From IMG/VR virus record IMGVR_UViG_3300043391_000370, positions 17,703 to 81,702 of that record: a DNA stretch of 64,000 nucleotides; one strand, given 5' to 3'. Positions 15,582-62,288 of this stretch are shown here, piece after piece; positions within the stretch are counted from its first letter, which is position 1, and each line of letters begins with the position of its first letter. The notes beneath the pieces were generated by a model. It was given only the letters and a program-made list of their open reading frames with translations. It did not search any database and was not told the origin of the DNA. The DNA is from a virus. Its lineage: Duplodnaviria; Caudoviricetes. Position numbers and translations under genes: made by a program.

Positions 15582-15619
15582 AATAACCCATAAAGTTCAG
15601 TTAAAATTATTTAGACTGC

Positions 15620-32368: not shown

Positions 32369-35300
32369 TTACCACCAGGTAATTTTAACATATCCATCCC
32401 CACCATCTCCACCGACACCAAAGGTTTGATTTTCATCTGCATATGCACCACCACCTCCACCACCTCCACGATCCCCATTACCACCATCACCGGCAATTCC
32501 TATTGAAGTTATAGAAGATGAAGATAGGGTTCCAGAAACACCAGCTGCGGCATAACCAGCAGCACCATAGGTAATTGAATTCAAAAGGTTTGTTGTGGTG
32601 GATGTTCTTGATGTCCAGGTGATCGCATCCGTGGAGAGTCTGATTACACCACCAGCACCGACTGCATAATAGATGCTGTTCAAATAACTTAATCTAAAAA
32701 TTGCAGAAGTACCAAAACCTGTTGTTCTTTGTTCCCAAATGATTGTATCTGTGGATGTTCTAAGCAATCCAGCATTACCACCGGCAAAGAATACTGTACC
32801 ATAACTTACGGCATTAATGTTTGTTGTACCAAATCCTGTGGTTCTTAGTACCCAAGAAATCGTATCAGTCGAAGTGATAATAGTATTGGTCACACCGAAA
32901 TAATCACTTGTTGCCGCAACATAATAATTACTATCATAAGTGAGTGCAGTAATGGACTGAACATTTGTCATAACCGTGGTTCTTAATGTCCAGGAAGCAG
33001 TATCTGCAGAAACGGCAAAGTATGCACCATTCACACCATAAGATGATAGAAGTGTCTGAGTCGATGCAGTTAGAGTTCCTGCTGCACCGGCAAGTAGGTA
33101 GTTATTATTACCATAGACTGAAGTAGAAATTGCCGTTGTACCAAATCCAGAAGTTCTTGCAGTCCATACAATACCATCAGTCGAAGTTCTACTGATTGCA
33201 CTATTACCGGAAGCAACATATATTCCATCACCATAAACATAAATGATACTGTTGACATTTATCGTACCAAATCCAGTAGTTCTTGTTGTCCAGGCAATTG
33301 CATCTGTTGAAGTTCTTAATGTTGCAGCACCACCAGCAATATAGATTGTTCCATAAGTTAATGCAAGTATACTAGAAGTACCGAATCCAGTAGTTCTTGA
33401 AGTCCAGACAATTGAGTCCGTGGATGTTCCAAGCAATCCACCATTACCACCGGCAACAAAAAGAGTTCCGGCAGTAAAGGCATTAATTTGAGTTGCACCG
33501 AATCCTGATGTTCTTTCAGACCAGGTGATATTATCAGTAGAAGCAATCAAACTTCTAGCATTTCCAAGATAGTTGGTGCCTGTTGCAAGATTATAACTTA
33601 GTTGCGTGGTTGTAGAAGTTGTTATGGTTCCACCATAACCACCGGCAACAAGAATATTATTTGCAAAAAGTAATTGAGCACGAACGATTGATGTTCCAAA
33701 ACCAGGGTTTCTTAAAGTCCAGGTGATTGCATCTGTTGAAATATTTAATCTTCCACCATCACCACCAATAACATAAAGATTATTTGCATAAAGTAAAGAC
33801 CAAATGCTTCCCCCAGTAAATCCAGAAGTTCTTAATGTCCAGGTGATTGCATCTGTTGAAGTGCCTAAAGATGGACCACCACCAATACTAGCAGCAACAT
33901 AAAGACCATTCCCATAAACTAAAGAATAAATGATTGTTGTACCAAATCCAGAAGTTCTTTGTGTCCAGGTGATTGCATCTGTTGAAGTGTTTAAGATTGC
34001 ACTATCACCAGCAGCAACATAAAGATTATTTCCATAGACTACAGAAAAAATATATGAACTACCAAAACCAGAGCAAGTTCTTAATGTCCAGGTAAGTGAG
34101 TCTGTGGATGTTGACAGATTTCCAGACTGATTTCCAGTTACATACTGATTATTTGCATAAATGATTGACCACGTTTGCGTGGCAGGTGTGGTTCGGTATT
34201 GCCAGACAATTCCATCAGTTGAAGTATTTAAGAATCCACCATCACCACTTAGGAAATAAGTATTATTTGCATAAGTTGAAGTGATAAAATTATCAACCAT
34301 ACCATTAGAAGTTCTTTGAGTCCAGGTGATAGTATCTGTTGAAGTGACTATAGTTCCACCACCACCAGCAGCAACATAAAGACCATTCCCATAAGTTAGA
34401 GCATAAATGACTGATGAACCAAATCCAGAGGTTCTTTGAGTCCAAGTACTGAATGGAACTAAAGTACCACCATTTACAGCAGTAAGAGTTTGAATATTAA
34501 GTGCGGTACTTCTAACAGTCCAGGTGATTGTATCGGTTGAAGCATTCAAAGTAACACCAGTACCAAAAGAACCAAGAATACTTTGAGGGGTTGAAATCAT
34601 TCTTCCCGTAATACCACTCATCACAAAAGTCTGATTGCCATAAACTGAAGCAGTAATTGCACTTGTACCAAATCCTGATGTTCTAAGTGTCCAAACAATA
34701 GCATCCGTTGAAACTAATTGAGTACCCGCAACACCACCAGAAGCATAAACATTATTATTATAAACTAGAGTGTTGATGACTGATACACCAAATCCAGAAG
34801 TCTGTAGTGCCCAGTTAATTGTATCAGTTGAAGTTGTTAAGAAAGGTTGACCGATATAGTTTGTACCGGCAGCAACATAAAGAGATTCACTTGTGGTTAA
34901 TGTCGTAATCGTTTGAGTATTAAGTCCAGTACTTCTGAGTGTCCAGGTGATTGTATCAGTCGAAGAACTTAGATATGCACCATTACCAAAGGAAGAAAGA
35001 ACAGTATCATTTGAAGTAGTCAGAGTTCCACTTGCACCACCGGCAAAATAAATGTTATTTCCAAAAGTCAGAGCATTAATTTGTGATGTACCAAATCCAG
35101 AAGTTCTGAGTATCCAGGTTATTGCATTTGTAGAAGTTGCCGATACACCATTTACACCAACTGCCGTAAAGACTGATTGCCCATAAGTTAATCCAAGAAT
35201 ATTGTTTGCACCAAATCCCGAAGTTCTTAATGTCCAGACAACTGAATCTGTAGAAGATGATACCAATCCACCATTACCACCGGCAAGATAAAGTGTTGCT

Positions 35301-38300
35301 CCATAAGAAATTGCACGAATATCTGTTGTACCAAGTCCAGAAGTTTGTACAATCCAACTGGTTGAATCACGAGAATATGTAATTGTTCCAGAGGCACCAC
35401 CAATAAGATAGAGTCCATCAACAGTTGAATATAATCCGGCATAAATTGTTGATGTACCAAAACCAGAAGTTTGTGCAGTCCAGGTGATTGTATCGGTAGA
35501 AGATGTAAGTGTTCCTGCATCACCACCAGCAATATAGATTCCTAAATCACTTGAGTAGGTTGTTTCATAAATGATTGAAGTACCAAAACCAGAGGTTCTC
35601 AATTCCCAAGTAATTCTATCCGTTGAAGTGGTTAATGTTCCAGCAGCACCACCGGCAACAAAAGATGTTCCATAGGTCAAGGCATTAATTAAAGTCGTAC
35701 CAAAACCAGAAGTTCTTAATATCCAGTTAATGGAATCAGTTGAAGTATTGATGATTCCAGCATCCCCACCGGCAATATAAAAATTATTTCCATAGGTCAA
35801 AGCATTAATTGAAGATGTACCAAAACCAGTAGTGGTTCTTGTAGTCCAAAGAGTTGAAAGTGTGGCACCGGCAGCAACATAAAGATTATTAGTATAACCA
35901 AAAGCATTAATTGCTAGTGTCGTTCCAGAGGTTCTTTGAGTCCAAACAATATTATTAGTAGAGACTTGTAGATTTCCATTTACCGCAGAAAGGTAATTGG
36001 TTCCTGTTAGGAATGAATAAGATCCACCAGAACCTAGTGTTGTAATTTTATCCAGATTAAGAAATCCAGTAGTTCTTAATGTCCAGTTAATCGCATCAGT
36101 CGAAGCACTTATTACTCCACCATCACCAAGATTAGCAAGTGTGGTTTGTGTTGTAGATGTTAATGTGCCAGCATCACCACCATTTAGATAAGTATTGTTT
36201 CCATAAACAAGTGCTCGTATTGTGGTGCCACCGAATCCTGATGTTCTCAAAGTCCAGGTGATTGCATCTGTAGAACTGATATTTGCACCAGCAACACCAG
36301 AAGCAACATAAACTCCACTATTATGGGCAAGACCAACGAAACTTTGAATTACACCAGCAGTTCTTAATGTCCAGGCAATTGCATCTGTTGAAGTTAAAAT
36401 TGTTCCACTTACACCAGAGACAACATAAACACCAGCATAAAGAGATTGATATAATGCATTTGCGGTTCCTGATGTTCTTGCAGTCCAGGTAATTGCATCG
36501 GTAGAAGTTTGAATCACACCGGCATTACGTGTTAAAAGATAAGTCGGTGTCGGTAAACTAGAATAATTAAGTGACTGGATAGAATTAGTAACATCACCAG
36601 ATGTTCTTATAGTCCAACGAATAGCATCAGTAGAAGTAAATACTGTTACCGAACTAGTAAAAACATAAGTGGATATTGGAGAATCACCATAAGCAATTGC
36701 CACAATACTAAGAGTTGTAGCAGTTCTTTGTGTCCAGGCAATAGTATCTGTAGAAGTTCTTAAAAGTCCAGAACCACCAGATAATACATAAGGTTCATTA
36801 CCTGTAGTTGCAGAACCAGATTTTCCGGCAACATACAGAAGTCCATTACCACCAGAAGATTGACCAATAGTGGCTGCTGTTCCAGAAGTTCTAGAAGTCC
36901 AGGCAATACCATCTGTAGATACTACCAATCTTCCACCAGTACCAGCAGCAAGGAAGTTAGTACCATCATATATTGATGTATAAATTGCAGAAGTACCAAA
37001 TCCAGAAGTTCTTTGATCCCAAATAATATTTGCACCACCAATAAGAATCTCACCATTAAAGAATGTTGCAGTATTAATTATAGATGGACTGGTTGATGTG
37101 GTTCTTGTAGTCCAGGCAATTGCATCTGTAGAAGTTCTGGTTGTAATATTACTGGCAGCAAGGTAAATATTATTTCCAAAGGCAAGTGTAGAAATTGTGG
37201 ATGTACCGAATCCAGCAGTTCTGAGGAACCAAATTGTAGAAACAGAAGCACCTCCGGCAACGAACTCATTATTAAAGAATGTCATCGCACCAATTGCAGT
37301 CGTTCCGAATCCAGAGGTTCTAATTGCCCAGGAAATTGTATCGGTAGAAGCAGTTAAGAGTCCACCAGCACCGGCAGCAGCATAAAAATTATTACCAAAT
37401 GCAAGTGTGGCAATTGCAGAAGTACCAAATCCTGATGTTCTTTGATTCCACATCGTGGTGATTGTTGCACCACCGGCAAGATAAAGACCGTTATTATATC
37501 CTAGTGCCGTGATTGGTTGGTTATTGGCAATACCAGGATTTCTTGATGTCCAGTTAATCGTATCCGTAGAGGCAATTATAAAACCTTCGTTTATATAATT
37601 AGTACCACCGGCAAGATAAAAAGTATTATCAGAGAATGTTGTAGTAATGGTTTGAGTATTGATTCCTGTGGTTCTAAGTGTCCAATTGATCGTATCAGTA
37701 GAGATACTAAAGTGAGCACCATTACCAAACGAAGAAACTTGTGCATCTAAAGCAGTAGCAATTGTTCCACCACTACCAGCAGCATAGAAAGATCCAGAAT
37801 TATATAATAACTGGCCGATTGTGGATCCACCAAATCCAGAAGTCCTAGTGACCCAAGTAATTCCATCTGTTGATGTCGTAACTGTATTTGTTCCAGAATT
37901 AACTTGACCTCCAGCAACATATACACCATTACCATAACTCAAAGTATTAATAAAGACTGTACCAAATCCTGCTGTTCTTAATGTCCAGACAATTGTATTT
38001 GTTGAAGTGTTTAGAACTCCACCTTGCCCACCCGCAAGATAAAGATTATTTGCATAAAGTAAAGAGTTAATGTTGGAAGTACCAAATCCAGAAGAAGTTC
38101 TTGAAACCCAAGAAATTGAATCGGTCGAAACTCTAATTGTTCCACCAGCACCACTAGCAAGATAAGGATTTGGTTGCCCAGAAGCATAAATTAATCCGTT
38201 TCCAGCAGCAAAATTACCAATACCAGATGTACCAAATCCAGAAGTTCTTAAAGTCCATGCAATTGTATCTGTTGAAGTGTTTATAATTCCAGAAGTAGCA

Positions 38301-40549
38301 CCAAGAAAATAATTAGTACCATCAAACATAAAAGTGTAAATAGAGGATGCACTAACTGCAGCACTTCTTAAAGTCCAGGTTATTGTATCCGTAGAAGCAA
38401 TTAAAATTCCCAAAGTACCCCCGGCAAGATAGATTCCATTACCATATCCTAGTGAAAGAATACCTGATGTACCAAAACCTGAAATGGTTGTTCTTTGAGT
38501 CCAGGTGATTGAGTCTGTAGATGCTGACAGAGTTCCGGTTATTCCACCAGCAACATAAAGATTGTTGCCAAATGTAAATGCCTGGATAATGGTAGAACCA
38601 AATCCTGATGTTCTTTGAGTCCAAAGAGTTGATACTGCAACACCAGCAGCATAATAAGTCGTACCCTTATATCCAAGAGCATTAATTGTTTGAGTAGTAC
38701 CAAAAGTTCTCAAATTCCAAGTTGATAGTCCAGATGAGAATGCTCCACCACCGGCACCACCACTACCGATGCTTCCAGTATAAGAACTTAGAATACTTGC
38801 TGCTCCATTTGTTCCGGCATTTGAACCACCAGTAACAGTATAACTATTTCCATAATAGTAAGAGGTAACACTACCACCACTATTCGTATTATAAGCACCA
38901 CCGGCACCACCAGTCGGTTGATAAGGTACTGATGGTGATGTTGCATTAATTCCAGTTCCAAGTACAGAAAGACCGGCACCACCAGCAAGACCGGCAGTTG
39001 TATAGAATGGATTTACAGTAGATGCAGTTGCCGCACCTGCTGGACCTGCCGTGACTGCCGTATCAGAAGCACCAGTACCACCGGCAGCACTTAAGGTATA
39101 AGTAAGTGTCCCGTCAGTAATATGAGGTATTCCAGTCCAGGTTAAAGTTGTTGCGGAACCTGATGATGTACTGTTAACAACATTAAGATTACCAGTAGTG
39201 CCTACAAGATAAAGACCATTTAAGTATTCAGTTGTCCATGCAATACCATAATTCTGAACAAGTGCGGTTCTTTGTGTCCAAACTATCGTATCGGTAGAAG
39301 TCGCAACAAATCCAGTTGGTGCCGATGTAACTCCAATATTAATAGCAGCACCACCAGAAGCAACATAAACACCATTACCATAAGTTATAAACCATGTCGA
39401 TGATTTACCAAACCCAGAAGTTCTATAAGTCCAGGTGATTGCATCTGTAGAAGTGGTTAGTACTCCAGCAGAACCACCGACAACATAAAGATTATTCGCA
39501 AACTTAATTGCTTTTACATCAGTATAACCAAATCCAGAAGTTCTTTGTGTCCAGGTGATTGCATCTGTTGAAGTGTTTAGAACTCCACCATTACCAACGG
39601 CAACAAAAGATGTTCCATAAGCAAAAGTATTAATAGTTGTTGTACCAAAACCAGAAGTTCTTTGTGTCCAGGTAATCGAGTCCGTTGAAGTATTTAAGAT
39701 TCCACTATCACCACCGACAACATAGGTATTGTTTGCATAAAATGAGGTATAAATGTTTGATGTACCAAAACCAGATGAAGTTCTTAAAGTCCAGGCAATT
39801 GCATCTGTTGAAGTTTGAATCAATCCAGAAAATCCACCAATTACAAAAATATTATTCCCATAAATGATAGACCTACTAACAGTAGTTGGTGCCGCAGAAG
39901 TTCTTAAAGTCCAAATAATTGTATCTGGAGAAGTATATATTGATACAGAAAAGGAAACATAAACACCATTACCATATGCTAATCCAAAAACAGTATTATT
40001 AGTGGCTCTTGGTCTCCATGTAATACCATCAGTACTTACAGATAATCCACGATTTCCTGCAAGACCACGAGTACCAGGTGTTACGGTAATCGTAGAAGCA
40101 CCGGCAAGTTCTGGACGACGAATGATCCAAGAAGCATAGGCACCAGAACCTCCACCGGCAGCGGCACCTAATGTACCTGTTGGTCTTCCTGCTGATCCCG
40201 CACCACCTGCACCAATTGCCTCAATATAAAGAGTCGATGCACTTTGAGGAACATAAAAGGTTTGTGCAAATGGTTGTGTAAACTCCTGAGCACCTTTATA
40301 AGTTACTGCATTACTTGCCGATGAAGTTAATGGTTTCCAACTGGTTGAACTACTTGAATATGGTGATGTGAGTAAGGTTCCAGTACCACCACCAGAGATT
40401 ACATAATTATCCGATGTCTTTGTGGAGTATAATAAAGATGAAGTATTCGAAGTTCTGAGTGTCCAGGTGATTGAATCCGTCGAACTAAGTACTGCACCAG
40501 TTAATGGACTTGTCGCAATATAAGTATTATTGATGTAATTGATCTTCAT
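32369..40549 (-). CDS. Giant Asp-box/BNR-like repeat protein (2726 aa) on a Gly-rich scaffold; putative virion appendage
   Basis: About 57 S-T-D-x-I-x-W-T-x-R-T-S-G repeats; C-terminus GDGGDGYVKITWW. Confidence 0.85.
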   Translation of the reverse strand: MKINYINNTYIATSPLTGAVLSSTDSITWTLRTSNTSSLLYSTKTSDNYVISGGGTGTLLTSPYSSSSTSWKPLTSSASNAVTYKGAQEFTQPFAQTFYVPQSASTLYIEAIGAGGAGSAGRPTGTLGAAAGGGSGAYASWIIRRPELAGASTITVTPGTRGLAGNRGLSVSTDGITWRPRATNNTVFGLAYGNGVYVSFSVSIYTSPDTIIWTLRTSAAPTTVSRSIIYGNNIFVIGGFSGLIQTSTDAIAWTLRTSSGFGTSNIYTSFYANNTYVVGGDSGILNTSTDSITWTQRTSGFGTTTINTFAYGTSFVAVGNGGVLNTSTDAITWTQRTSGFGYTDVKAIKFANNLYVVGGSAGVLTTSTDAITWTYRTSGFGKSSTWFITYGNGVYVASGGAAINIGVTSAPTGFVATSTDTIVWTQRTALVQNYGIAWTTEYLNGLYLVGTTGNLNVVNSTSSGSATTLTWTGIPHITDGTLTYTLSAAGGTGASDTAVTAGPAGAATASTVNPFYTTAGLAGGAGLSVLGTGINATSPSVPYQPTGGAGGAYNTNSGGSVTSYYYGNSYTVTGGSNAGTNGAASILSSYTGSIGSGGAGGGAFSSGLSTWNLRTFGTTQTINALGYKGTTYYAAGVAVSTLWTQRTSGFGSTIIQAFTFGNNLYVAGGITGTLSASTDSITWTQRTTISGFGTSGILSLGYGNGIYLAGGTLGILIASTDTITWTLRSAAVSASSIYTFMFDGTNYFLGATSGIINTSTDTIAWTLRTSGFGTSGIGNFAAGNGLIYASGQPNPYLASGAGGTIRVSTDSISWVSRTSSGFGTSNINSLLYANNLYLAGGQGGVLNTSTNTIVWTLRTAGFGTVFINTLSYGNGVYVAGGQVNSGTNTVTTSTDGITWVTRTSGFGGSTIGQLLYNSGSFYAAGSGGTIATALDAQVSSFGNGAHFSISTDTINWTLRTTGINTQTITTTFSDNTFYLAGGTNYINEGFIIASTDTINWTSRNPGIANNQPITALGYNNGLYLAGGATITTMWNQRTSGFGTSAIATLAFGNNFYAAAGAGGLLTASTDTISWAIRTSGFGTTAIGAMTFFNNEFVAGGASVSTIWFLRTAGFGTSTISTLAFGNNIYLAASNITTRTSTDAIAWTTRTTSTSPSIINTATFFNGEILIGGANIIWDQRTSGFGTSAIYTSIYDGTNFLAAGTGGRLVVSTDGIAWTSRTSGTAATIGQSSGGNGLLYVAGKSGSATTGNEPYVLSGGSGLLRTSTDTIAWTQRTATTLSIVAIAYGDSPISTYVFTSSVTVFTSTDAIRWTIRTSGDVTNSIQSLNYSSLPTPTYLLTRNAGVIQTSTDAITWTARTSGTANALYQSLYAGVYVVSGVSGTILTSTDAIAWTLRTAGVIQSFVGLAHNSGVYVASGVAGANISSTDAITWTLRTSGFGGTTIRALVYGNNTYLNGGDAGTLTSTTQTTLANLGDGGVISASTDAINWTLRTTGFLNLDKITTLGSGGSYSFLTGTNYLSAVNGNLQVSTNNIVWTQRTSGTTLAINAFGYTNNLYVAAGATLSTLWTTRTTTGFGTSSINALTYGNNFYIAGGDAGIINTSTDSINWILRTSGFGTTLINALTYGTSFVAGGAAGTLTTSTDRITWELRTSGFGTSIIYETTYSSDLGIYIAGGDAGTLTSSTDTITWTAQTSGFGTSTIYAGLYSTVDGLYLIGGASGTITYSRDSTSWIVQTSGLGTTDIRAISYGATLYLAGGNGGLVSSSTDSVVWTLRTSGFGANNILGLTYGQSVFTAVGVNGVSATSTNAITWILRTSGFGTSQINALTFGNNIYFAGGASGTLTTSNDTVLSSFGNGAYLSSSTDTITWTLRSTGLNTQTITTLTTSESLYVAAGTNYIGQPFLTTSTDTINWALQTSGFGVSVINTLVYNNNVYASGGVAGTQLVSTDAIVWTLRTSGFGTSAITASVYGNQTFVMSGITGRMISTPQSILGSFGTGVTLNASTDTITWTVRSTALNIQTLTAVNGGTLVPFSTWTQRTSGFGSSVIYALTYGNGLYVAAGGGGTIVTSTDTITWTQRTSNGMVDNFITSTYANNTYFLSGDGGFLNTSTDGIVWQYRTTPATQTWSIIYANNQYVTGNQSGNLSTSTDSLTWTLRTCSGFGSSYIFSVVYGNNLYVAAGDSAILNTSTDAITWTQRTSGFGTTIIYSLVYGNGLYVAASIGGGPSLGTSTDAITWTLRTSGFTGGSIWSLLYANNLYVIGGDGGRLNISTDAITWTLRNPGFGTSIVRAQLLFANNILVAGGYGGTITTSTTTQLSYNLATGTNYLGNARSLIASTDNITWSERTSGFGATQINAFTAGTLFVAGGNGGLLGTSTDSIVWTSRTTGFGTSSILALTYGTIYIAGGAATLRTSTDAIAWTTRTTGFGTINVNSIIYVYGDGIYVASGNSAISRTSTDGIVWTARTSGFGTTAISTSVYGNNNYLLAGAAGTLTASTQTLLSSYGVNGAYFAVSADTASWTLRTTVMTNVQSITALTYDSNYYVAATSDYFGVTNTIITSTDTISWVLRTTGFGTTNINAVSYGTVFFAGGNAGLLRTSTDTIIWEQRTTGFGTSAIFRLSYLNSIYYAVGAGGVIRLSTDAITWTSRTSTTTNLLNSITYGAAGYAAAGVSGTLSSSSITSIGIAGDGGNGDRGGGGGGGAYADENQTFGVGGDGGDGYVKITWW

Positions 40550-40602
40550 CTATTATACACCTTTCTGTTGGAAATTATAATTCAACGGACACATTTTAAT
40601 TC

Positions 40603-40609
40603 TATTTAG
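40603..40609 (-). promoter_or_regulatory. Late-promoter-like CTAAATA in the gap between the two giant genes
   Basis: Same motif as upstream of gp26 (15608-15614) and in the gp4 divergent gap. Confidence 0.5.
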
Positions 40610-40632
40610 ATTGATTACAAAATGGTAATATA

Positions 40633-43600
40633 CTAATATCCAGAAGTTCTCTGAGTCCAGGTAATTGTATCTGTTGAGACTGCAAAGGAACTACCTGTAT
40701 CACTTGCAATATAAAGACTATCCTTACCAACAAAGGTAATATCATCCACAGAAGAAGTTCCAAATCCAGAAGTTCTTAAGTACCAAGTAACAGTATCAAT
40801 TGAAGTAGCAATTGTTCCAGAATCACCAACAATAAAATAAGTTGCATTATAATATTTAACACCATTAATTATTGTTCCCATAGTAATTCCTGTTGCTCTT
40901 GTAGTCCAGATAATTGAATCCGTCGATGCCGCAATTATTCCAGGTCTTCTATCATAATCTGAGAACGATGCCAGATAATATTGACTTCCCAAAATAACAT
41001 GATCTAATTGCTGTACGTTCACAGAAGAAGTTCTTAATCTCCAGGAAATTGCATCGGTGGAAACAATAATAGTGGCACCATCTCCACGATTCGTTAGAGA
41101 ACTATAAGTTCCGGTAGCAACATAACCAAATGATGAAACCTGAACATAAGTATCATTATTATAAGCAATACCATTAATTATATCAGTAATACCAGAGGTT
41201 CTGGCAATCCAGATTACACCATCAGTTGAAGCAGAGTTACCACCACCACCAGAAGTTACATAAAGATTATTGGCATATAATACATTTCGAGTACCACCCG
41301 TAGCAACAGTTCTTAAAGTCCAGGTGATTGAATCTGTGGATGTTTGAATAATTCCAGCACCAGATGGAGAAATGTGTCCAGCAACATAAAGATTTGTACC
41401 ATTATAAGTTATACCATTAATTGGATATCCTGGTTGCCTATAAGCAGATGTTCTTAATACCCAAGAAACGGCATTTGTGGAAACTGCAATTGATGTATTG
41501 CCATCAAAATCACTAAATCCACCGACAAACTTCAGACCATCATAGAAAAAGGTATTTGCATCTTGAACATTTGATACTGTGGTTCTAACAAACCAGTTAA
41601 TGGTGTCTGTAGATGCCGATAAGAATGCACCATTACCTGGATTAGTGAGTGATGCATAGGTTGCCGTACCCAGAATACCAAGCTCTCCAGAAAAAATAAA
41701 TTGATTATTTGCATAACTTAAAGTAAAAATATTTCGGGTTACTCCAGAAGTTCTAAGAGACCAAGTAATTGTGTCTGTTGAGATTGCTGTGCCACCTGTA
41801 GATGCACTAACAACATAAAGTCCATTATCATAAGCAAATGAATAGATAGTTGTTGAACCAAATCCAGAAGTTCTTAGTGTCCAGGTGATTGCATCTGTTG
41901 AAGTGTTTAAAGTTCCACCACCGGCACCACCAAGAATATAAGTACCGTTCTGATACAACATTCCATAGATTGTTGCACCAGTACCTGATATGCCAGCAGT
42001 TCTTAACGTCCAGGTGATAGTATCTGTCGATGTTATAATAGGTGGAATTTCACCAGATCTCCCACCACCACCAGCAACATAAAGACCATTACCATAGATT
42101 AATCCTCGACTATCTCCAGTATTAGTAAGTCCGGTTGTTCTTAGTGACCAGAAAATTGCATTTGTCGAAACTGAAATTACACAATCATTTGCAACACCAA
42201 GAGATTCTCCAGAAACACCAGAACCAACATAAAGACCATTAACATAGATTAGTGCTCGATAAAATGCGGTTGTTCCAGAAGTTCTTTGTGTCCAGGCAAT
42301 TGCATTTGTTGAAGACGTAATGGTTCCACCCCGACCATTCAAAACATAAGTACCGGCATTATAAACAAACCCATGTATTGCACTCGTACCAAATCCAGAA
42401 GTTCTAGCAGTCCAGGTGATTGTATCCGTAGAAGCAATTAAGAGTCCACTATTGCCACCAGTAACGTAAAAACCATTCTGATAAATTACTGTTCCCATTC
42501 CACCAAATCCAGAAGTTCTTAAAGTCCAGGCAACAGTAGGATTCAAACCACCAATCAAATAAAATCCACCACCAAAATAAACAGTATTTACAGTCTTACC
42601 ATAAGACCTAGAAGTTCTTAAAATCCAGGTGATATTATCAGTCGAAGCAGAAGTCACACCAGGAATTGAGAAATAATCAGTTCCGGAAGCAACATAATAA
42701 GAACTCGAAGCAGTTAGTTTATCAACCTGAACCATTCCTGATGATGTGGTTCTTGTAGTCCAGGAGACTGCATCAGTAGAAACATTCAGTCTTGCACCAT
42801 TACCTAAGGTTGTTAAGATACTTGCAGATGCTGATTGAAGTCTTCCTGTGGTTCCAGAAGTTATGAAAGTATTATTACCGGCAGCAGCACGATGCATTAA
42901 AGTAACAGATTGACTTATAGTAGATGTTCTTGATATCCAAATGATTCCATCAGTTGATGTTCTTGTAGAACCTCCAGCAGTAGCAAGCACAAAAATATTA
43001 TTTGCATATACTAAATCTCTAGATATTGATGTTCCTAGTGACCCAGTTCTTAATGTCCAAGTGATTGTATCTGTGGAAGTTTGTATAATGCCATTATTAT
43101 CACTCGAAACAGTAACATAAAGATTTGAACCATTTGTACTAAGAACTGCAGTATAATTTGATGCTGCAGCAGTTCTTGCAGTCCAGTTAATCGTATCTGT
43201 GGAAACTGCAAGTGTTGTATTGGAATTATAATTACTCAGAGCAGCAAGATAAAGTGAAGAACTGGAAGTGATCGCATCTACTTGCTGAACATTCGGTATT
43301 GAAGTTCTTATGTCCCAGGTGATATTATCAGTAGAGGTTGATAGAAGTGCTCCGTTTCCTAGATTTGTGAGTTGTGAGTATGTTGCCGTGGTTAGAGTTC
43401 CATTATCACCACCAGCAACATAAGTATTATTGCCAAAGGTTAATCCAATTATACGAGTTGAACCAAATCCAGAAGTTCTTTGTGTCCAAGTGATAGTATC
43501 TGTTGAAATGATTAATGTTCCACTATTACCTGAAGCAACATAAAGATTATTTCCATAAAGAAACTCATATAAATTAACTGCAGTTCCAGAAGTTCTAAAA

Positions 43601-45777
43601 GTCCAGGCAATTGTATCTGTTGAAGTGGTTATAAGTCCACCATTACCACCGGCAACATAAGTATTGTTTCCATAAACTAATGATTGAATTGCATTCGTAC
43701 CAAATCCAGAAGTTCTAAATGTCCAAGTGATTGCATCTGAGGATGTTGCTAAGGTTCCAACAACACCACCAGCAACATAAAAATTATTACCAAATGTAAG
43801 TGTTTGAATATTAGTATTGCCAAATCCTGAAGTTCTATAAGTCCAAGTGATTGCATCTGTTGAAGTGGTTATAGTTCCACCCGTACCACCAGCAACATAA
43901 AGGTTATTTGCATAAGTAATTTCAAATATACTACTTGTACCAAATCCAGAAGTTCTCTGCTCCCAAGTAATAGTATCTGTTGAAGTCGATAATACATTTG
44001 CACCAAATGCATTAGCAACATAAAGATTATTTCCATATGTTATTGCAAAAATTTCAGTTGTACCAAATCCAGAAGTTCTCAAAATCCAACTGATTGAATC
44101 AGTCGAAGTACTTATGAGACCATTTCTTCCATTAATTGTATAAAAATTATTTGCAAAAAGGATATTACTTATTTGTTCTGCAGTTCCAGAAGTTCTTAAA
44201 GTCCAACTTACAACAAGACTTAAACCACCAACCAAATATCTACTATCATCGGCATAAAGTGAAGTAATCGCATTTCCACTCACACCAGCAGTTCTTAAAG
44301 TCCAAATGATATTATTTGTAGATACAGAAATAATACCTCCCACACCAGCATAAGTACAATTTGATGCAAGATAATATGAGGAATTAGAAGCAAAATAATC
44401 GACTTGTGCAATACCTGATGTTGTGGTTCTTGTAGTCCAGGATACTGCATCGGTAGAAGCAGTTAGAAGAGCACCATTATCAAGAAGTCCTGATGCCGTG
44501 GTTAAAGTTCCACCACTACCACCAGCAACATAAAGATTGTTTACATAACGTAACATACTAATAAGTGATGTACCAAATCCAGAAGTTCTATAAGTCCAGG
44601 TGATTGCATCTGTTGAAGTGGTTAATCTTCCATTATCACCACCAGCAACATAAGTATTGTTTGCATAAAGTAAAGATAGAATATGTGTAGAACCAAATCC
44701 AGAAGTTCTTAAAGTCCAGGCAATTGTATCTGTTGAAGTGTTTAGAGTTCCACCAGTACCACCTACAATATAAGTATTGTTTGCATAAAGTACGGAACGA
44801 ATCTGTGATGCACCAAATCCAGAAGTTCTTTGAGTCCAAGTGATTGAATCAGTTGAAGTGTTTAGAACTCCACTAAACCCACCAGCAACATAAAGATTAT
44901 TTGCATAAATTAAAGGAATAATAACTGTTGCACCAAATCCAGAAGTTCTTAGTGTCCAGGCAATTGAGTCTGTCGAAACTGATATTCCACCATCACCTGC
45001 AATATAATAATTACTGTTTGCATAAATTAATGATGCAATAGTTACCGAAACACCAGAAGTTCTTAGTGTCCAGGCAATTGAGTCTGTTGAAGTGTTTAGA
45101 GTTCCACCAGCACCAGCAGTAACATAAAAATTATTTTCAAAAATAATTGCTCTTATGGTACTTACACCAAATCCAGAAGTTCTTTGAGTCCAATTATTCA
45201 AAGAATCATAAAGACCACCAGCAAGAAAATATCCCTGACCAAAGACTACATCATTAATATCAACACTACCAAACCCAGAAGTTCTTAATGTCCAGGTAAT
45301 TGTATCAGTATATCCACCGGCAACAAAGTATCCATTTCCATAGGTTACGTCATTAACTGTAGTAGTTCCAAATCCTGAAGTTCTTAAAGTCCAACTTAAA
45401 CTTCTATCCGTGTCACCACCGGCAAGGTAAATATTATTCCCATAAACAACATCATACAATATCGCATTTGAAGCAGACGTTCTTAAAGTCCAAGATACTG
45501 CATCCGTAGAAGTATTTAATATTCCTGTACTACTTCCTCCAACGGCAACATAAAGATTATTGGAATAAAGGAGTCCGTTAATATTATCTGTACCAAAACC
45601 AGCAGTTCTTAAAATCCAGACAACTCCTGGAGATGGATCAACTTGCAAAAAGGTATTAGCAGCTGCCGTTGTAACTGATGCAAATGAGGCATTATCTACA
45701 TACTCTTTGTTTACAACATCAGTAGAATTGGATACTACACTTACATCAATAACCTTATTACTGTCTAATGTTGCCAT
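40633..45777 (-). CDS. Giant Asp-box/BNR-like repeat protein (1714 aa), ends in mid-repeat
   Basis: About 40 repeats; N-terminal STDVVNKEYVDN; ends TDTITWTQRTSGY-stop. Confidence 0.85.
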   Translation of the reverse strand: MATLDSNKVIDVSVVSNSTDVVNKEYVDNASFASVTTAAANTFLQVDPSPGVVWILRTAGFGTDNINGLLYSNNLYVAVGGSSTGILNTSTDAVSWTLRTSASNAILYDVVYGNNIYLAGGDTDRSLSWTLRTSGFGTTTVNDVTYGNGYFVAGGYTDTITWTLRTSGFGSVDINDVVFGQGYFLAGGLYDSLNNWTQRTSGFGVSTIRAIIFENNFYVTAGAGGTLNTSTDSIAWTLRTSGVSVTIASLIYANSNYYIAGDGGISVSTDSIAWTLRTSGFGATVIIPLIYANNLYVAGGFSGVLNTSTDSITWTQRTSGFGASQIRSVLYANNTYIVGGTGGTLNTSTDTIAWTLRTSGFGSTHILSLLYANNTYVAGGDNGRLTTSTDAITWTYRTSGFGTSLISMLRYVNNLYVAGGSGGTLTTASGLLDNGALLTASTDAVSWTTRTTTSGIAQVDYFASNSSYYLASNCTYAGVGGIISVSTNNIIWTLRTAGVSGNAITSLYADDSRYLVGGLSLVVSWTLRTSGTAEQISNILFANNFYTINGRNGLISTSTDSISWILRTSGFGTTEIFAITYGNNLYVANAFGANVLSTSTDTITWEQRTSGFGTSSIFEITYANNLYVAGGTGGTITTSTDAITWTYRTSGFGNTNIQTLTFGNNFYVAGGVVGTLATSSDAITWTFRTSGFGTNAIQSLVYGNNTYVAGGNGGLITTSTDTIAWTFRTSGTAVNLYEFLYGNNLYVASGNSGTLIISTDTITWTQRTSGFGSTRIIGLTFGNNTYVAGGDNGTLTTATYSQLTNLGNGALLSTSTDNITWDIRTSIPNVQQVDAITSSSSLYLAALSNYNSNTTLAVSTDTINWTARTAAASNYTAVLSTNGSNLYVTVSSDNNGIIQTSTDTITWTLRTGSLGTSISRDLVYANNIFVLATAGGSTRTSTDGIIWISRTSTISQSVTLMHRAAAGNNTFITSGTTGRLQSASASILTTLGNGARLNVSTDAVSWTTRTTSSGMVQVDKLTASSSYYVASGTDYFSIPGVTSASTDNITWILRTSRSYGKTVNTVYFGGGFYLIGGLNPTVAWTLRTSGFGGMGTVIYQNGFYVTGGNSGLLIASTDTITWTARTSGFGTSAIHGFVYNAGTYVLNGRGGTITSSTNAIAWTQRTSGTTAFYRALIYVNGLYVGSGVSGESLGVANDCVISVSTNAIFWSLRTTGLTNTGDSRGLIYGNGLYVAGGGGRSGEIPPIITSTDTITWTLRTAGISGTGATIYGMLYQNGTYILGGAGGGTLNTSTDAITWTLRTSGFGSTTIYSFAYDNGLYVVSASTGGTAISTDTITWSLRTSGVTRNIFTLSYANNQFIFSGELGILGTATYASLTNPGNGAFLSASTDTINWFVRTTVSNVQDANTFFYDGLKFVGGFSDFDGNTSIAVSTNAVSWVLRTSAYRQPGYPINGITYNGTNLYVAGHISPSGAGIIQTSTDSITWTLRTVATGGTRNVLYANNLYVTSGGGGNSASTDGVIWIARTSGITDIINGIAYNNDTYVQVSSFGYVATGTYSSLTNRGDGATIIVSTDAISWRLRTSSVNVQQLDHVILGSQYYLASFSDYDRRPGIIAASTDSIIWTTRATGITMGTIINGVKYYNATYFIVGDSGTIATSIDTVTWYLRTSGFGTSSVDDITFVGKDSLYIASDTGSSFAVSTDTITWTQRTSGY

Positions 45778-45813: not shown

Positions 45814-47604
45814 CTACCACCAAGTAATTTTCACATAACCATCACCACCATTACCACCATTACCAAAAGTACTTCCAATCGAAGCACCACCACCTCCACC
45901 ACCACCTCTGATACCATTACCACCAGTTGCGGCAATTGATACACTTGCTCCTGCACCACCACCACCAAAACCATAAGGAAGTCCAGTAATTGCAGTTGCA
46001 CTACTTCCATTTGTTCCTAATGATGACCCACCAGATACTGATGTCGTATTTCCATAAAAATTAATTGTTCCACCGGCACCACCAGATGTTGTTGTGATTC
46101 CTGCACCAGATCCACCACCGGTTGCCTGATATTGATTGGAAGATGTAAGTGCAGTATATCCAATACCACCTGTATTATTTGCACCCGAGAGTCCGATGGT
46201 AGTGTAATAATAATTGGTGATTGCAGTTTGTGCGATACCTGGTGTTTGTCCAGGACTACCAGATGCAGTTAAATTATAAGTTCCTCCGGGGCCAGTCCAG
46301 GATACCGTGGTTCCGGCACCTGCAGAACCTCTAGCAGCATCCGTACTTCCACCAGAACCACCAACCCCAGGATTGACTGTAAGATTCGAACTTACAATAT
46401 TTTTCGGAATGTACCAGGAAGTATAAGAACCAGAACCACCACCGACTCCTCCTGTCTGATAATATGAGACTGCTAGAGTTCCACTAGCACCCCCGGCAAC
46501 ATAAATGTTATTAGCATATGTTATAGAAGTAACAGATGATGTACCAAATCCAGAAGTTCTTAATGTCCAGGCAATTGCATTTGTTGAAGTGTTTAGAACT
46601 CCAGAAATACCACCAGCAACATAAAAATTATTTGCATAGACAAGAATATTGATAGTTGTTGCACCAAATCCAGAAGTTCTTTGTGTCCAACGGATTGAGT
46701 CTGTTGAAGTTGCTAAAGTTCCAGAAGCACCACCGGCAACATAAGTATTGTTTGCATAAATTAAAGAAGTAATCTGTGAATTACCAGATCCAGTAGTTCT
46801 TTGTGTCCAGAAGATAGCATTTGTAGAAGTGGTTAGAACTCCACCAGTACCACCAGCAACATAAGTATTGTTTGCATAAAGTACGGAAATAATAGATGTT
46901 GCACCGAATCCAGAAGTTCTTTGTGTCCAACGGATTGAGTCTGTTGAAGTTGCTAAAGTTCCAGAAGCACCACCGGCAACATAAGTATTGTTTCCATAAT
47001 GTAATATTTGAATGCTAGTTGATCCAAATCCAGAAGTTCTTTGAGTCCAAGTGATTGCATCTGTTGAAGTGGTTAGTGTCGCAGCAATACCATTAGCATA
47101 ATAATTATTGTTTAAATAAGTTAAGAAAAGAATCTGTGATGTACCAAATCCAGAAGTTCTAAAAGTCCAGGCAACCGAATCTGTAGAAGTGATTAATATT
47201 CCATTATTACCACCGGCAACATAAGTATTGTTTCCATAAACTAATGATTGAATTGCATTCGTACCAAATCCAGAAGTTCTAAATGTCCAAGTAACTGCTG
47301 CTTGTTCCGTGGTTTGTCCTGCACTTCCACCACCACCAGCACCGATTGCCTCAATATACAACATATTTGCCTGATTTGGAACCGTAAAGGTTTGTGCTCC
47401 GGTTGATGTAAACTCCTGATAATTGGTAACATAATCCCAGGATGTTGTCGTCCCATCAGTTGTGGTTAAAAACTTTCCGGCATTACCAGTCTGTGATGGT
47501 AATGTTTGATTCAGTTTTAAATCTACATATGCCTTATTTGGAACATCAGTCGGTTGTGTAAATGATGTGATTCCTTGAATTGAACTAGAAGTAATTGTAA
47601 TCAT
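45814..47604 (-). CDS. Gly-rich scaffold protein with one 7-repeat insert (596 aa)
   Basis: FTVP..YIEAIGAGGGG, then 7 repeats, then GGGSGSY..GDGYVKITWW. Confidence 0.85.
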   Translation of the reverse strand: MITITSSSIQGITSFTQPTDVPNKAYVDLKLNQTLPSQTGNAGKFLTTTDGTTTSWDYVTNYQEFTSTGAQTFTVPNQANMLYIEAIGAGGGGSAGQTTEQAAVTWTFRTSGFGTNAIQSLVYGNNTYVAGGNNGILITSTDSVAWTFRTSGFGTSQILFLTYLNNNYYANGIAATLTTSTDAITWTQRTSGFGSTSIQILHYGNNTYVAGGASGTLATSTDSIRWTQRTSGFGATSIISVLYANNTYVAGGTGGVLTTSTNAIFWTQRTTGSGNSQITSLIYANNTYVAGGASGTLATSTDSIRWTQRTSGFGATTINILVYANNFYVAGGISGVLNTSTNAIAWTLRTSGFGTSSVTSITYANNIYVAGGASGTLAVSYYQTGGVGGGSGSYTSWYIPKNIVSSNLTVNPGVGGSGGSTDAARGSAGAGTTVSWTGPGGTYNLTASGSPGQTPGIAQTAITNYYYTTIGLSGANNTGGIGYTALTSSNQYQATGGGSGAGITTTSGGAGGTINFYGNTTSVSGGSSLGTNGSSATAITGLPYGFGGGGAGASVSIAATGGNGIRGGGGGGGASIGSTFGNGGNGGDGYVKITWW

Positions 47605-47616
47605 TTGTTTTCCTCC

Positions 47617-50307
47617 TTACCACCAACTGATACGAACATAACCATCACCACCAGTACCACCGGCACCAACAGTACCGGTAGTGGATTCAAATGCACCACC
47701 ACCACCTCCACCACCCTTGACTCCATAACCACCATAACCCGCAACTGCCGAGTCTGGTGAATTAAATAAACTACCCAGATTACCGGCAGCAAAATAATTC
47801 ATGTTATTATATAAAATTGAAAAAATTGAACTAGAAACCGTTCTTGCTGTCCATACAATTGAATCTGTTGATGTTGATAGTCTTGGAAAAAAACCACCGG
47901 CAAGATATAAATTATTTCCATAAGTTACAGTTCTTATACTATTTGTATAACCAGAAGTTCTTAAAGTCCAGGTGATTGCATCTGTTGAAGTGTTTAGAAC
48001 TCCATTACCAACACCAAGAAAATAGATATTGTTTGCATAAATTGTAGTAATAATTGGTAAAGAAGGAGTTCCAGAAGTTCTTAGAGTCCAGGTGATTGTA
48101 TCTGTTGAAGTTGCTAAAGTTCCAGAATCACCACCAGCAACATAGGCATTCGTTTTTCCTGGTGCATAATTCAAAGATAAAATGTTTATTGTACCAAAAC
48201 CAGAAGTTCTATAAGTCCAGGTGATTGCATCTGTTGAAGTGGTCAATACTCCACCATAACCAGCAGCATAATACTTATTATTTGCATTTATAATTGTATG
48301 AATATTAGAAGTACCAAACCCAGAAGTTCTTTGAGTCCAAGTAATTGTATCTGTTGAAGTGGTCAATACTCCACCATCACTAGCATCTGTAGTTCCACCT
48401 CCACCGGCAACATAAGTATTGTTTGCATAAGTAACTGCAAGTATACTAGTTGTACCAAATCCAGAAGTTCTATAAGTCCAGGTGATTGCATCTGTTGAAG
48501 TGGTTAAACAACCACCCTCACCAACAGAAACATAAGTACTGTTTCCAAAAATAATTGCTCTTATGGTACTTGTACCAAACCCAGAAGTTCTTGTTGCCCA
48601 TATGACTCCACCAGAACTTTGTGCTCCTCCACCACCTCCACCACCTCCATAAGAAAGTCCTACACGGAACTTGGGATTTGTACCATAAACACCATTAGGA
48701 GTATTTGTTGCAGTATTTCCATAAAAACTAATCGTTCCATTAGAACCACCAAAACTTCCTCCTCCTTCACTTACTCCTCCCCCACCACCACCAGTTGTTT
48801 GAAAAGATAATGTTGCACCTATTGCATTAGCACCGGCAACAGTTTCAAAAACACTTCCAGTACCACCGACAGTTCCTGCAGTTGCCTGAAGATAATTTGT
48901 GGTTGCTGCAGGTATTGTTCCACCAGCACCACCATTAGGAATTACAATATTAGTTCCAGGACTTCCACCATTTGCCGATAGAGTATAAGTTCCTGATGGG
49001 CCAGTCCAGGATACTGTGGTTGCTGCTCCTACTGTATTTGAAGTTCCACCAGAACCAACATTTACAGTAAGTGTTGACCCAGTAATATATGCCTTTGAAA
49101 TCTTCCAGGATGCTGATGCTCCTCCACCTCCTCCACCACCTGAGAATCCTGATACTGTTGTTGGTGAGATTGTTAGAGTTCCACCAGCACCAGCAGCAAG
49201 ATAAGTATTATTCTGATAAAAAACTGTAAATATACTACTTGTACCAAATCCAGAAGTTCTTTGAGTCCAGACAATCGTATCTGTTGAAGTTGCTAATAAT
49301 CCACCATCACTAGAAGCAAGGTAAGTATTATTTCCAAAAGTTATGTCAGTTATACGACTTGAACCGAATCCAGAAAATCTTTGAATCCAGGTAATCGTAT
49401 CCGTTGAAGTGGTTAGAGTTCCACCATTACCACAAGCAACATAAAGATTGTTTACATAACGTAACATACTAATAAGTGATGTACCAAATCCAGAAGTTCT
49501 ATAAGTCCAGGTGATTGCATCTGTTGAAGTGGTCAAAGTTCCAATATTGCCACCAGCAAAATAAGTATTGTTTGCATAAAGTAGTGGGGTAAGAGTTGTT
49601 GTACCAAATCCAGAAGTTCTTTGAGTCCAGGCAATTGTATCTGTTGAAGTGGTTATAAGTCCACCATTACCACCGGCAACATAAAGATTATTTCCATAAG
49701 CAAGTGCTGTTAAACTAGTTGTACCAAATCCAGAAGTTCTTTGTGTCCAGGAAATTGTATCTGTTGAAGTTGCTAATAATCCACCATCACCGCAGGCAAC
49801 ATAAAGATCATTTGAGTAGATAATTGAAGCTGATCTAGTTGAACCAAATCCAGAAGTTCTTTGAACCCAAGTGATTGAATCTGTTGAACTATACATAACT
49901 CCAACAGTACCGACAGAAGTATAAAAACTGTTTGCATAAACAATTGAAATGATTTGGTTTCCAGATCCAGAAGTTCTTTGAGTCCATAAAGTTCCTGGTT
50001 GATAAGAAACTCCACTATTATTTCCAGATGCTCCTCCACCACCGGCACCCGTTGCTTCAATTAAAAACTCTTTTGCCTGATTCGGTACAGTAAAGGTATA
50101 ATTTCCTGCTGCTGTGTATTCTTGTACTCCATCAATTGGTTGCCAAGAAGTATTACTACCATCAGTAAATAAGAACTGATTAGTTTTTCCCGATACAGAA
50201 GGTAATGAACTCGGTAGATTATCAACATATTGCTTAATGACAGCATCAGTCGAACTGATTGATGTAGTAATTCCTGTGATACTAGTTAAACCTACCTGTA
50301 CTGGCAT
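47617..50307 (-). CDS. Gly-rich scaffold protein with two 7-repeat inserts (896 aa)
   Basis: Same scaffold ending GDGYVRISWW. Confidence 0.85.
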   Translation of the reverse strand: MPVQVGLTSITGITTSISSTDAVIKQYVDNLPSSLPSVSGKTNQFLFTDGSNTSWQPIDGVQEYTAAGNYTFTVPNQAKEFLIEATGAGGGGASGNNSGVSYQPGTLWTQRTSGSGNQIISIVYANSFYTSVGTVGVMYSSTDSITWVQRTSGFGSTRSASIIYSNDLYVACGDGGLLATSTDTISWTQRTSGFGTTSLTALAYGNNLYVAGGNGGLITTSTDTIAWTQRTSGFGTTTLTPLLYANNTYFAGGNIGTLTTSTDAITWTYRTSGFGTSLISMLRYVNNLYVACGNGGTLTTSTDTITWIQRFSGFGSSRITDITFGNNTYLASSDGGLLATSTDTIVWTQRTSGFGTSSIFTVFYQNNTYLAAGAGGTLTISPTTVSGFSGGGGGGGASASWKISKAYITGSTLTVNVGSGGTSNTVGAATTVSWTGPSGTYTLSANGGSPGTNIVIPNGGAGGTIPAATTNYLQATAGTVGGTGSVFETVAGANAIGATLSFQTTGGGGGGVSEGGGSFGGSNGTISFYGNTATNTPNGVYGTNPKFRVGLSYGGGGGGGGAQSSGGVIWATRTSGFGTSTIRAIIFGNSTYVSVGEGGCLTTSTDAITWTYRTSGFGTTSILAVTYANNTYVAGGGGTTDASDGGVLTTSTDTITWTQRTSGFGTSNIHTIINANNKYYAAGYGGVLTTSTDAITWTYRTSGFGTINILSLNYAPGKTNAYVAGGDSGTLATSTDTITWTLRTSGTPSLPIITTIYANNIYFLGVGNGVLNTSTDAITWTLRTSGYTNSIRTVTYGNNLYLAGGFFPRLSTSTDSIVWTARTVSSSIFSILYNNMNYFAAGNLGSLFNSPDSAVAGYGGYGVKGGGGGGGAFESTTGTVGAGGTGGDGYVRISWW

Positions 50308-60153: not shown

Positions 60154-62136
<1,983 letters not shown>

Positions 62137-62149
62137 TTGTTAAAGGGTA

Positions 62150-62250
62150 AGTATGAGTTCAAGGGGAATTGAACGATTACAGTATATCCTACACCACCCT
62201 CCAGTGCAGGGATGAGAGATGCTTTACTTCTGATGATCTCGGTTGCAGAA
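62150..62250 (-). ncRNA. psbA leader RNA, PhotoRC-II-like motif
   Basis: ACCGAGA..UCUCUCAU..GAGGGU elements upstream of phage psbA, recognised from memory. Confidence 0.55.
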
Positions 62251-62288
62251 GGTTACGGAACGTAAAGATTTGTCTTTGTTTCCTGACT

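Follow-up and report, generated by a model that had tools for sequence, protein, structure and literature searches.

A giant tail-fibre-like gene split at a propeller blade boundary in a freshwater T4-like phage: a candidate joint in trans

Two adjacent giant genes on the minus strand of a tailed-phage genome (Duplodnaviria; Caudoviricetes; IMG/VR virus record IMGVR_UViG_3300043391_000370) are close to certain to be the two parts of what was once a single gene. We analysed a window of 64,000 nucleotides (nt), bases 17703-81702 of this 81.7-kb record; all coordinates below are window positions. The upstream open reading frame (ORF1, 1714 amino acids (aa)) ends, and the downstream one (ORF2, 2726 aa) begins, within the same predicted β-propeller, here called P1, which totals seven blades solely when both ORFs are counted. 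The likeliest reading, to which we assign a probability of about 0.6, is a genuine and young fission, with late expression of both genes and non-covalent rebuilding of one propeller by the two chains.

One propeller encoded by two genes

ORF1 and ORF2 are built of repeats of about 40 residues, of the form ..STDxITWTxRTSGFG..YGNNxYVAGG.., and more than 90 similar blades make the region highly repetitive. Ten uninterrupted units taken from the window align as 7 repeats. AlphaFold2 folded uninterrupted units into a closed propeller, with a predicted local distance difference test score (pLDDT) of 78.9 and a predicted template-modelling score (pTM) of 0.81 for the best model (the other four models failed). 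Foldseek comparison of the unit model gave template-modelling (TM) scores of 0.74-0.81 to 7-bladed propellers (β-TrCP, the designer protein v13WRAP-T and Ycf48). The designed propellers Ika4, Ika8 and Tako8 (PDB 6g6q, 6g6o and 6g6m) were matched by the unit profile at the sequence level, with E = 2.9e-7 to 8e-4, and by fold too, and ORF1 itself matches the Pfam family DUF6242 (E=4e-10). As modelled, the uninterrupted units are seven-bladed β-propellers of the Ycf48/BNR-like (DUF6242) kind. Each modelled blade has four strands, in the order I..L.YGNN, YVAGG, G.L.TS and W..RT, and the RTSGFGTS stretch forms the loop toward the next blade.

Blades were parsed by counting W..RT as the last strand of each blade. 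For the nesting, 'entries' were defined as blades broken after the YVAGG strand and 'returns' as their resumption at ..GNGA.L..STD; entries and returns nest properly in ORF1. Read in this way, P1 starts in ORF1 with its closing strand (W54) and proceeds through blade 1, a blade 2 that accommodates a tree of five more propellers (1436 aa), and blades 3-5, the last of which ends at W1707 shortly before the stop. By motif count, the W..RT strands of P1 are W54, W96, then, after the nested insert, W1579, W1624, W1665 and W1707 in ORF1, and W29 in ORF2, seven in all. An earlier sequence-only reading of this DNA had attributed five full repeats and the start of a sixth to ORF1, which holds in the repeat phase used there. 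It had also proposed that the start of ORF2 completes P1 to seven blades, and W29 of ORF2 does provide the seventh W..RT strand.

The same reading placed the cut inside a blade. This is correct in the phase of the sequence repeats and fails by secondary structure: with the strand phase of the unit model, the cut comes after the last strand of blade 5 and ahead of the first strand of blade 6, in the connecting loop and hence at a blade boundary. ORF1 ends in ..STDTITWTQRTSGY-stop, with the TAG at 40633-40635 right after WTQRTSGY, and ORF2, in a different reading frame, begins with MKINYINNTYIATS.. (KINYINNTYIATS.. after the initiator Met). Blade 7 would be composite, with its fourth strand donated by ORF1 (W54) and the others by ORF2.

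The glycine-rich scaffold is divided in the same manner, as had been noticed from the sequence alone. FLQVD lies in ORF1 and STSWKPL..QEFT in ORF2, and the corresponding motifs, FLTTTDG-TTTSW..QEFT and FLFTDG-SNTSWQPI..QEYT, are uninterrupted in the neighbouring paralogs of 596 and 896 aa. Because the hairpin is undivided in the paralogs, we read P1 as an insertion in a scaffold hairpin, with both propeller and hairpin shared between the two genes. Further inserted propeller trees are held in the scaffold loops of ORF2. The family PF21722 (Gly_rich_2) is precomputed on several fused homologs and reaches 19.3 bits on the 596-aa paralog against a cut-off of 24.3; ORF2 has no Pfam match at E <= 0.1, and its scaffold is broken into three pieces by the inserts.

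Deep within ORF1, the innermost nested propeller P4 (44500-45210, minus strand; residues 189-426) displays six W..RT strands (W196, 236, 274, 314, 354, 394), unlike every other counted unit, which has seven. P4 is either a six-bladed unit or a unit with one degenerate blade.

Fused relatives of the divided gene

Homologs encoded as one ORF, whose search the sequence-only reading had recommended, were found at the equivalent genomic position. Four contigs of IMG/VR (L009-L012), nearly identical to one another, have one ORF of 3328 aa there, followed by four genes with 77-87% identity to those downstream of ORF2. One metagenome contig (L013) carries a single ORF of 1850 aa, then the same neighbour gene. 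Searching with residues 1-175 of ORF2 among proteins of 1499-4771 aa retrieved 13 proteins about 1850 aa long, along with several more. Their N-terminus, MATLDSNKVTGVSVVSN.. (MATLDSNKV..), is like that of ORF1, and the match to ORF2 is internal, at about residues 608-790. Altogether, the fused relatives comprise about 17 proteins, two with DNA and a shared gene neighbourhood and about 15 further ones.

In nine relatives, the tail of ORF1 and the head of ORF2 align back to back. Between the ORF1 tail and the equivalent of M1 of ORF2, eight of the nine have 4-5 residues (e.g. SISNF, TSQEI, GTTA) and the ninth has two. None of the relatives found starts or ends at the break. The notion of one ancestral protein, advanced before any homolog was at hand, is well supported by the positional orthologs, the further relatives and these alignments, and the splitting of one ancestral gene into two is close to certain. 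Since the relatives are fused and colinear and no other split form was found, we take the fused state, on this comparison, as ancestral and the split as derived and restricted to this lineage. As in other 'genes in pieces', the orthologs are single, colinear ORFs, each piece is an intact ORF and the downstream one carries start signals of its own.

The position of the nested tree within P1 varies. It sits in blade 2 in the window (45400-45620, minus strand) and in blade 3 in the fused orthologs L009 and L013, leaving 2+5 blades around the insert here versus 3+4 in the orthologs, seven in both cases. These compensating counts suggest that blade number is conserved while blades shuffle.

The exact sequences of ORF1 and ORF2 are absent from the protein collection searched. 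The only part of the family submitted to tblastn, residues 1-175 of ORF2, matched none of 50,697 cultured phage records, and blastn of the ORF1/ORF2 junction was equally without a match. This N-terminal scaffold stretch recurs in many freshwater metagenome contigs.

The spacer between ORF1 and ORF2

The sequence-only reading described two ORFs in different frames, separated by 83 AT-rich base pairs with a CTAAATA motif, and all of this is confirmed. The spacer has 24% G+C, the ORFs 37-39%. At the break, 83 nt and a stop codon take the place of about 15 coding nt. All three frames are closed: TAG, TAA and TGA occur in the frame of ORF1, and TAA TAG stand immediately 5′ of the ORF2 ATG. The AGGTG core, at its spacing of 8 nt, outdoes the ribosome-binding sites of 27 of the 34 genes in the window; a Shine-Dalgarno core of at least 5 nt is present at 7 of the 34, and at about 6.7% of random positions. 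CTAAATA occurs six times in the 81.7-kb record, five times within the non-coding 7% and 22-53 nt ahead of a gene start. ORF1 has an ATAAATA 22 nt ahead of its start.

Boxes of the NTAAATA type (CTAAATA, ATAAATA and TATAAATA) precede many gene starts by 19-53 nt and are rare within genes; examples are at 15608, 16425, 23527, 45800 and 52153. NTAAATA is likely to be the late-promoter motif of this phage. In the T4-like phage Aeh1, the late-promoter motif reported is CTAAATA (PMC1524935).

A terminator and a stable RNA fold were sought in the spacer and not found (z = 0.01 for the fold), and the spacer has no match to an Rfam family. A further copy was found neither in the 81.7-kb record nor in L009-L012, and a 20-mer from the spacer is without a match in the viral contig collection. 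In view of the start signals, the CTAAATA box and the lack of a terminator or fold, the spacer reads as an ordinary late-gene spacer of the phage, located exactly at a blade boundary.

Other readings of the spacer were considered and discarded. Decay of a former blade is rejected, as the loss of coding sequence comes to only about 15 nt, against 83 nt and a stop now present. The first bases of the spacer resemble blade-loop coding DNA (TAGTATATT) over a short distance, which was judged too weak in AT-rich DNA. Reassignment of a stop codon is ruled out by the presence of TAG, TAA and TGA in the ORF1 frame, and an intron by the length of 83 nt, which is too short, together with the missing Rfam match.

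Occurrence of the split in other studies

The gap is real and not an artefact of assembly, a point that the sequence-only reading had wished to see confirmed. The evidence comes from contigs of independent assemblies rather than from raw reads. In run X5, which belongs to another study (2022), one Logan contig of 1876 nt with a depth of 289 spans 39909-41300, and it shows 0 differences from the window over the 685 nt between 40236 and 40920. Runs X3 and X8, from other studies, each contain the gap in two identical pieces. In total, at least three other studies, from 2022-2025, contain the split form.

Beside the identical core, the X5 strain has 17 listed differing positions. Substitutions and indels cluster at 39935-39959, where X5 gains 6 bases net and remains in frame. 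Below 39909, from about codon 214 of ORF2, X5 diverges completely from the window, which points to mosaic blade exchange between strains. Since the X5 strain differs elsewhere, the split is common to at least two distinguishable strains. Among the changed codons, 5 are synonymous and 2 non-synonymous in ORF2, and 6 are synonymous and 2 non-synonymous, both conservative, in ORF1. This may hint, and only hint, at purifying selection on both genes in the strains that carry the split.

X5 contigs that join distant blades through short sides of 21-35 nt were examined as possible fused variants and rejected. The one that was checked (40486 to 41144) is out of frame, and these contigs are read as other blades of the repeat family.

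Fission with a joint in trans, or a break

The ancestor would have been a single gene for a giant tail-fibre-like protein, in which a glycine-rich scaffold carried nested seven-bladed β-propellers in its loops. The roughly 15 coding bases for the loop between blades 5 and 6 of the outermost propeller would have been swapped for some 86 bases supplying a stop codon, a late-promoter-like box, a ribosome-binding site and an ATG. Both genes would be transcribed late, either jointly, no terminator intervening, or from the new box as well, and ORF2 would be translated from its own start. The two chains would then join non-covalently by rebuilding one propeller, ORF1 providing blades 1-5 and the closing strand and ORF2 providing blade 6 and three strands of blade 7. 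In such a joint, the N-terminal strand and the hairpin strand of ORF1 would pair with ORF2, blade 5 of ORF1 would pack on blade 6 of ORF2, and the divided scaffold hairpin would pair beside the propeller. The outcome would be an interlocked clasp of a 1714-aa arm and a 2726-aa arm. We infer assembly in trans because the start signals are tidy, nothing but a loop was lost, the proposed topology interlocks, the split form is abundant and recurs, and selection is hinted at.

The sequence-only reading had left the choice between a docking joint in trans and a recent break. A disabling break would have truncated the fibre gene, with ORF2 untranslated or left out of virions and not yet decayed, and ORF1 alone or the paralogs would suffice. 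We regard it as unlikely, and as the most serious competitor. It would account well for a split confined to near-identical strains when all other relatives are fused, and for the identity of the 685 nt round the gap between strains. One would not expect a random break to place a promoter-type box, a good ribosome-binding site and an ATG preceded by two stops exactly at a blade boundary, nor to cost just 4-5 residues. The depth of 289 in X5 and the occurrence in at least three other studies show the split form to be abundant, which a disabled fibre gene does not readily explain; nor does it readily explain that 2726 codons are still open, that synonymous changes between strains outnumber non-synonymous ones by 5 to 2 in ORF2, and that the indels keep the frame.

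Several observations weigh against a joint maintained in trans. The CTAAATA box of the spacer stands 53 nt from the ATG, as compared with 22-31 nt for the other copies. The differences between strains are few and clustered, and may represent conversion tracts instead of independent mutations. No diverged split relative was found in metagenome contigs, among the proteins of 1499-4771 aa or among shorter proteins. Because the split is found solely in near-identical strains, it is, by this distribution, young, and its long-term maintenance lacks support from diverged copies. Finally, the two intact paralogs that adjoin ORF1 could cover a loss of function. Overall, the evidence leans to the docking joint in trans over the recent break, without settling the matter.

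Recoding is very improbable. The ribosome would hop as in T4 gene 60, from a take-off UAU before the UAG to a landing UAC (Tyr, codon 5 of ORF2). The phage is T4-like, the stop immediately follows the take-off codon and, 98 nt further on, the ORF2 frame offers a Tyr codon. Of the marks of gene 60-type programmed bypass, the stop and the Tyr codon are thus present and the take-off stem-loop is absent, the z-score of the fold being that given above; an Rfam match is likewise missing. The hop would measure 98 nt as against 50 nt in T4 gene 60, and landing at codon 5 would remove the first strand of blade 6, which a start at the ATG keeps. Simple frameshifting is excluded by the stops in all frames. 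An assembly or sequencing artefact hiding a continuous gene, which more than 90 similar blades might invite, is largely refuted and barely credible, as the same 83-nt gap with identical flanks recurs in independent contigs of other studies, one of them spanning it at depth 289, and the gap occurs only once in the genome and does not resemble a blade.

A bolder proposal goes beyond fission with a joint in trans, and we advance it tentatively, its chances falling somewhat short of even. P1 would be a natural 5+2 split β-propeller serving as an interlocked non-covalent joint, made in one step by a late-promoter/ribosome-binding-site cassette, and T4-like phages would have in this a way to divide oversized structural genes. 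Should the two chains indeed join, the same propeller, fused in sister phages and split here with the loss of just 4-5 loop residues, would be a clean natural experiment in protein fragment complementation. Giant phage fibre proteins would be breakable into modules at the blade boundaries of their propellers, which bears on the origin of new subunit joints in phage tails. Annotators would have to be wary of two 'hypothetical proteins' that form one functional unit. The practical value would be modest, possibly a natural split-propeller tag or docking pair.

Features and genomic setting

Table 1. Features of the divided gene and its surroundings (window positions).
Feature	Position	Strand	Description
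ORF1	40633..45777	minus	1714 aa; tail-fibre-type N-terminal head, first scaffold hairpin strand, closing strand and blades 1-5 of P1, nested tree
FLQVD, ORF1 residues 43-47	45637..45651	minus	first strand of scaffold hairpin; partner strand in ORF2
WILRT, ORF1 residues 54-58	45604..45618	minus	predicted closing strand of blade 7 (from blade parse and model strand phase)
WTQRTSGY, ORF1 residues 1707-1714	40636..40659	minus	last strand of blade 5 and start of inter-blade loop
Non-coding spacer	40550..40632	minus	83 nt, 24% G+C, stops in all frames
CTAAATA late-promoter-like box	40603..40609	minus	53 nt before ORF2 ATG
AGGTG Shine-Dalgarno core	40558..40562	minus	8 nt before ORF2 ATG
ORF2	32369..40549	minus	2726 aa; remainder of P1, then whole glycine-rich scaffold ending ..GDGYVKITWW
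ORF2 residues 1-62	40364..40549	minus	whole blade 6 and first three strands of blade 7 of P1
STSWKPL, ORF2 residues 68-74	40328..40348	minus	second strand of scaffold hairpin
QEFT, ORF2 residues 88-91	40277-40288	minus	after STSWKPL
Two single-ORF paralogs (596 aa, 896 aa)	45814..50307	minus	undivided hairpin and scaffold; internal controls

By gene content, the source is a T4-like cyanomyophage, and the sequencing runs that contain its DNA are freshwater metagenomes. CheckV estimates the completeness of the record at 38%. The window encodes a baseplate hub (PHROG 1922) and several tail-fibre proteins, one with a C-terminal Peptidase_S74 chaperone domain. The closest cultured phage is Synechococcus phage S-SRM01, with 61.5% identity in a tail protein. 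Both giant genes are housed in a fibre cluster, with the two smaller paralogs upstream. Downstream of them comes a block of glycosyltransferase-like and methyltransferase genes; 'glycosyltransferase-like' is the label given by the sequence-only reading, and Pfam gave no match.

Elsewhere in the window, psbA is interrupted (60244-62265, minus strand). Rfam detects a group I intron at 60244-60466 (79.9 bits) within the psbA region and, ahead of psbA, a PhotoRC-II RNA motif (62174-62265). The psbA pieces at 61582-62136 and 60351-60890 flank an ORF of 155 aa with a LAGLIDADG-like motif (60943-61410).

Comparison with known systems

T4 gene 60 resembles the present case in several respects: the host genome is that of a T4-type phage, the gap is non-coding, a stop directly follows the last sense codon, and what are now two parts were once one coding sequence. 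Unlike gene 60, the present gap lacks a take-off stem-loop and has about twice the length, landing would cost a strand, and the downstream part, ORF2, has its own ATG and ribosome-binding site.

Structurally, the closest precedents are propellers closed by a second polypeptide, known from architectural proteins, and designed half-propellers such as Ika4. In Sec13 with Nup145C or Sec31, and in Seh1 with Nup85, an open propeller is closed by strands of the partner chain, which makes a very stable joint. ORF1 and ORF2 would be alike in that a second chain closes the propeller of an architectural protein. The Sec13 and Seh1 pairs, however, are ancient, eukaryotic and conserved as two chains, and one blade is given to a 6-blade propeller, whereas the phage split is 5+2 with a closing strand that crosses back, is young, and has extant fused orthologs. 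Among the designed propellers, Ika4 is a half-length chain that forms a full propeller by association. Ika4, Ika8 and Tako8 are designed, symmetric, 8-bladed homo-oligomers, while the phage propeller is natural and 7-bladed and would be an asymmetric hetero-assembly.

The nearest precedent in T4-like phages is the ribonucleotide reductase of Aeromonas phage Aeh1, described as 'genes in pieces' with its products NrdA-a and NrdA-b (Crona et al. 2011, PMC3045599). There, nrdA is split by the homing-endonuclease gene mobE, and the products reassemble non-covalently into a functional protein (PMC3045599). In both phages, a gene was divided in two by an insertion. Reassembly of the Aeh1 polypeptides proceeds without RNA or protein splicing, and function is proven for NrdA but only proposed for ORF1 and ORF2. 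The Aeh1 insert is a whole mobE gene and new tails mediate assembly, whereas here the insert is 83 nt without an ORF and there are no new tails. NrdA, moreover, is an enzyme, whereas ORF1 and ORF2 are structural and their assembly would rest on the completion of a β-propeller.

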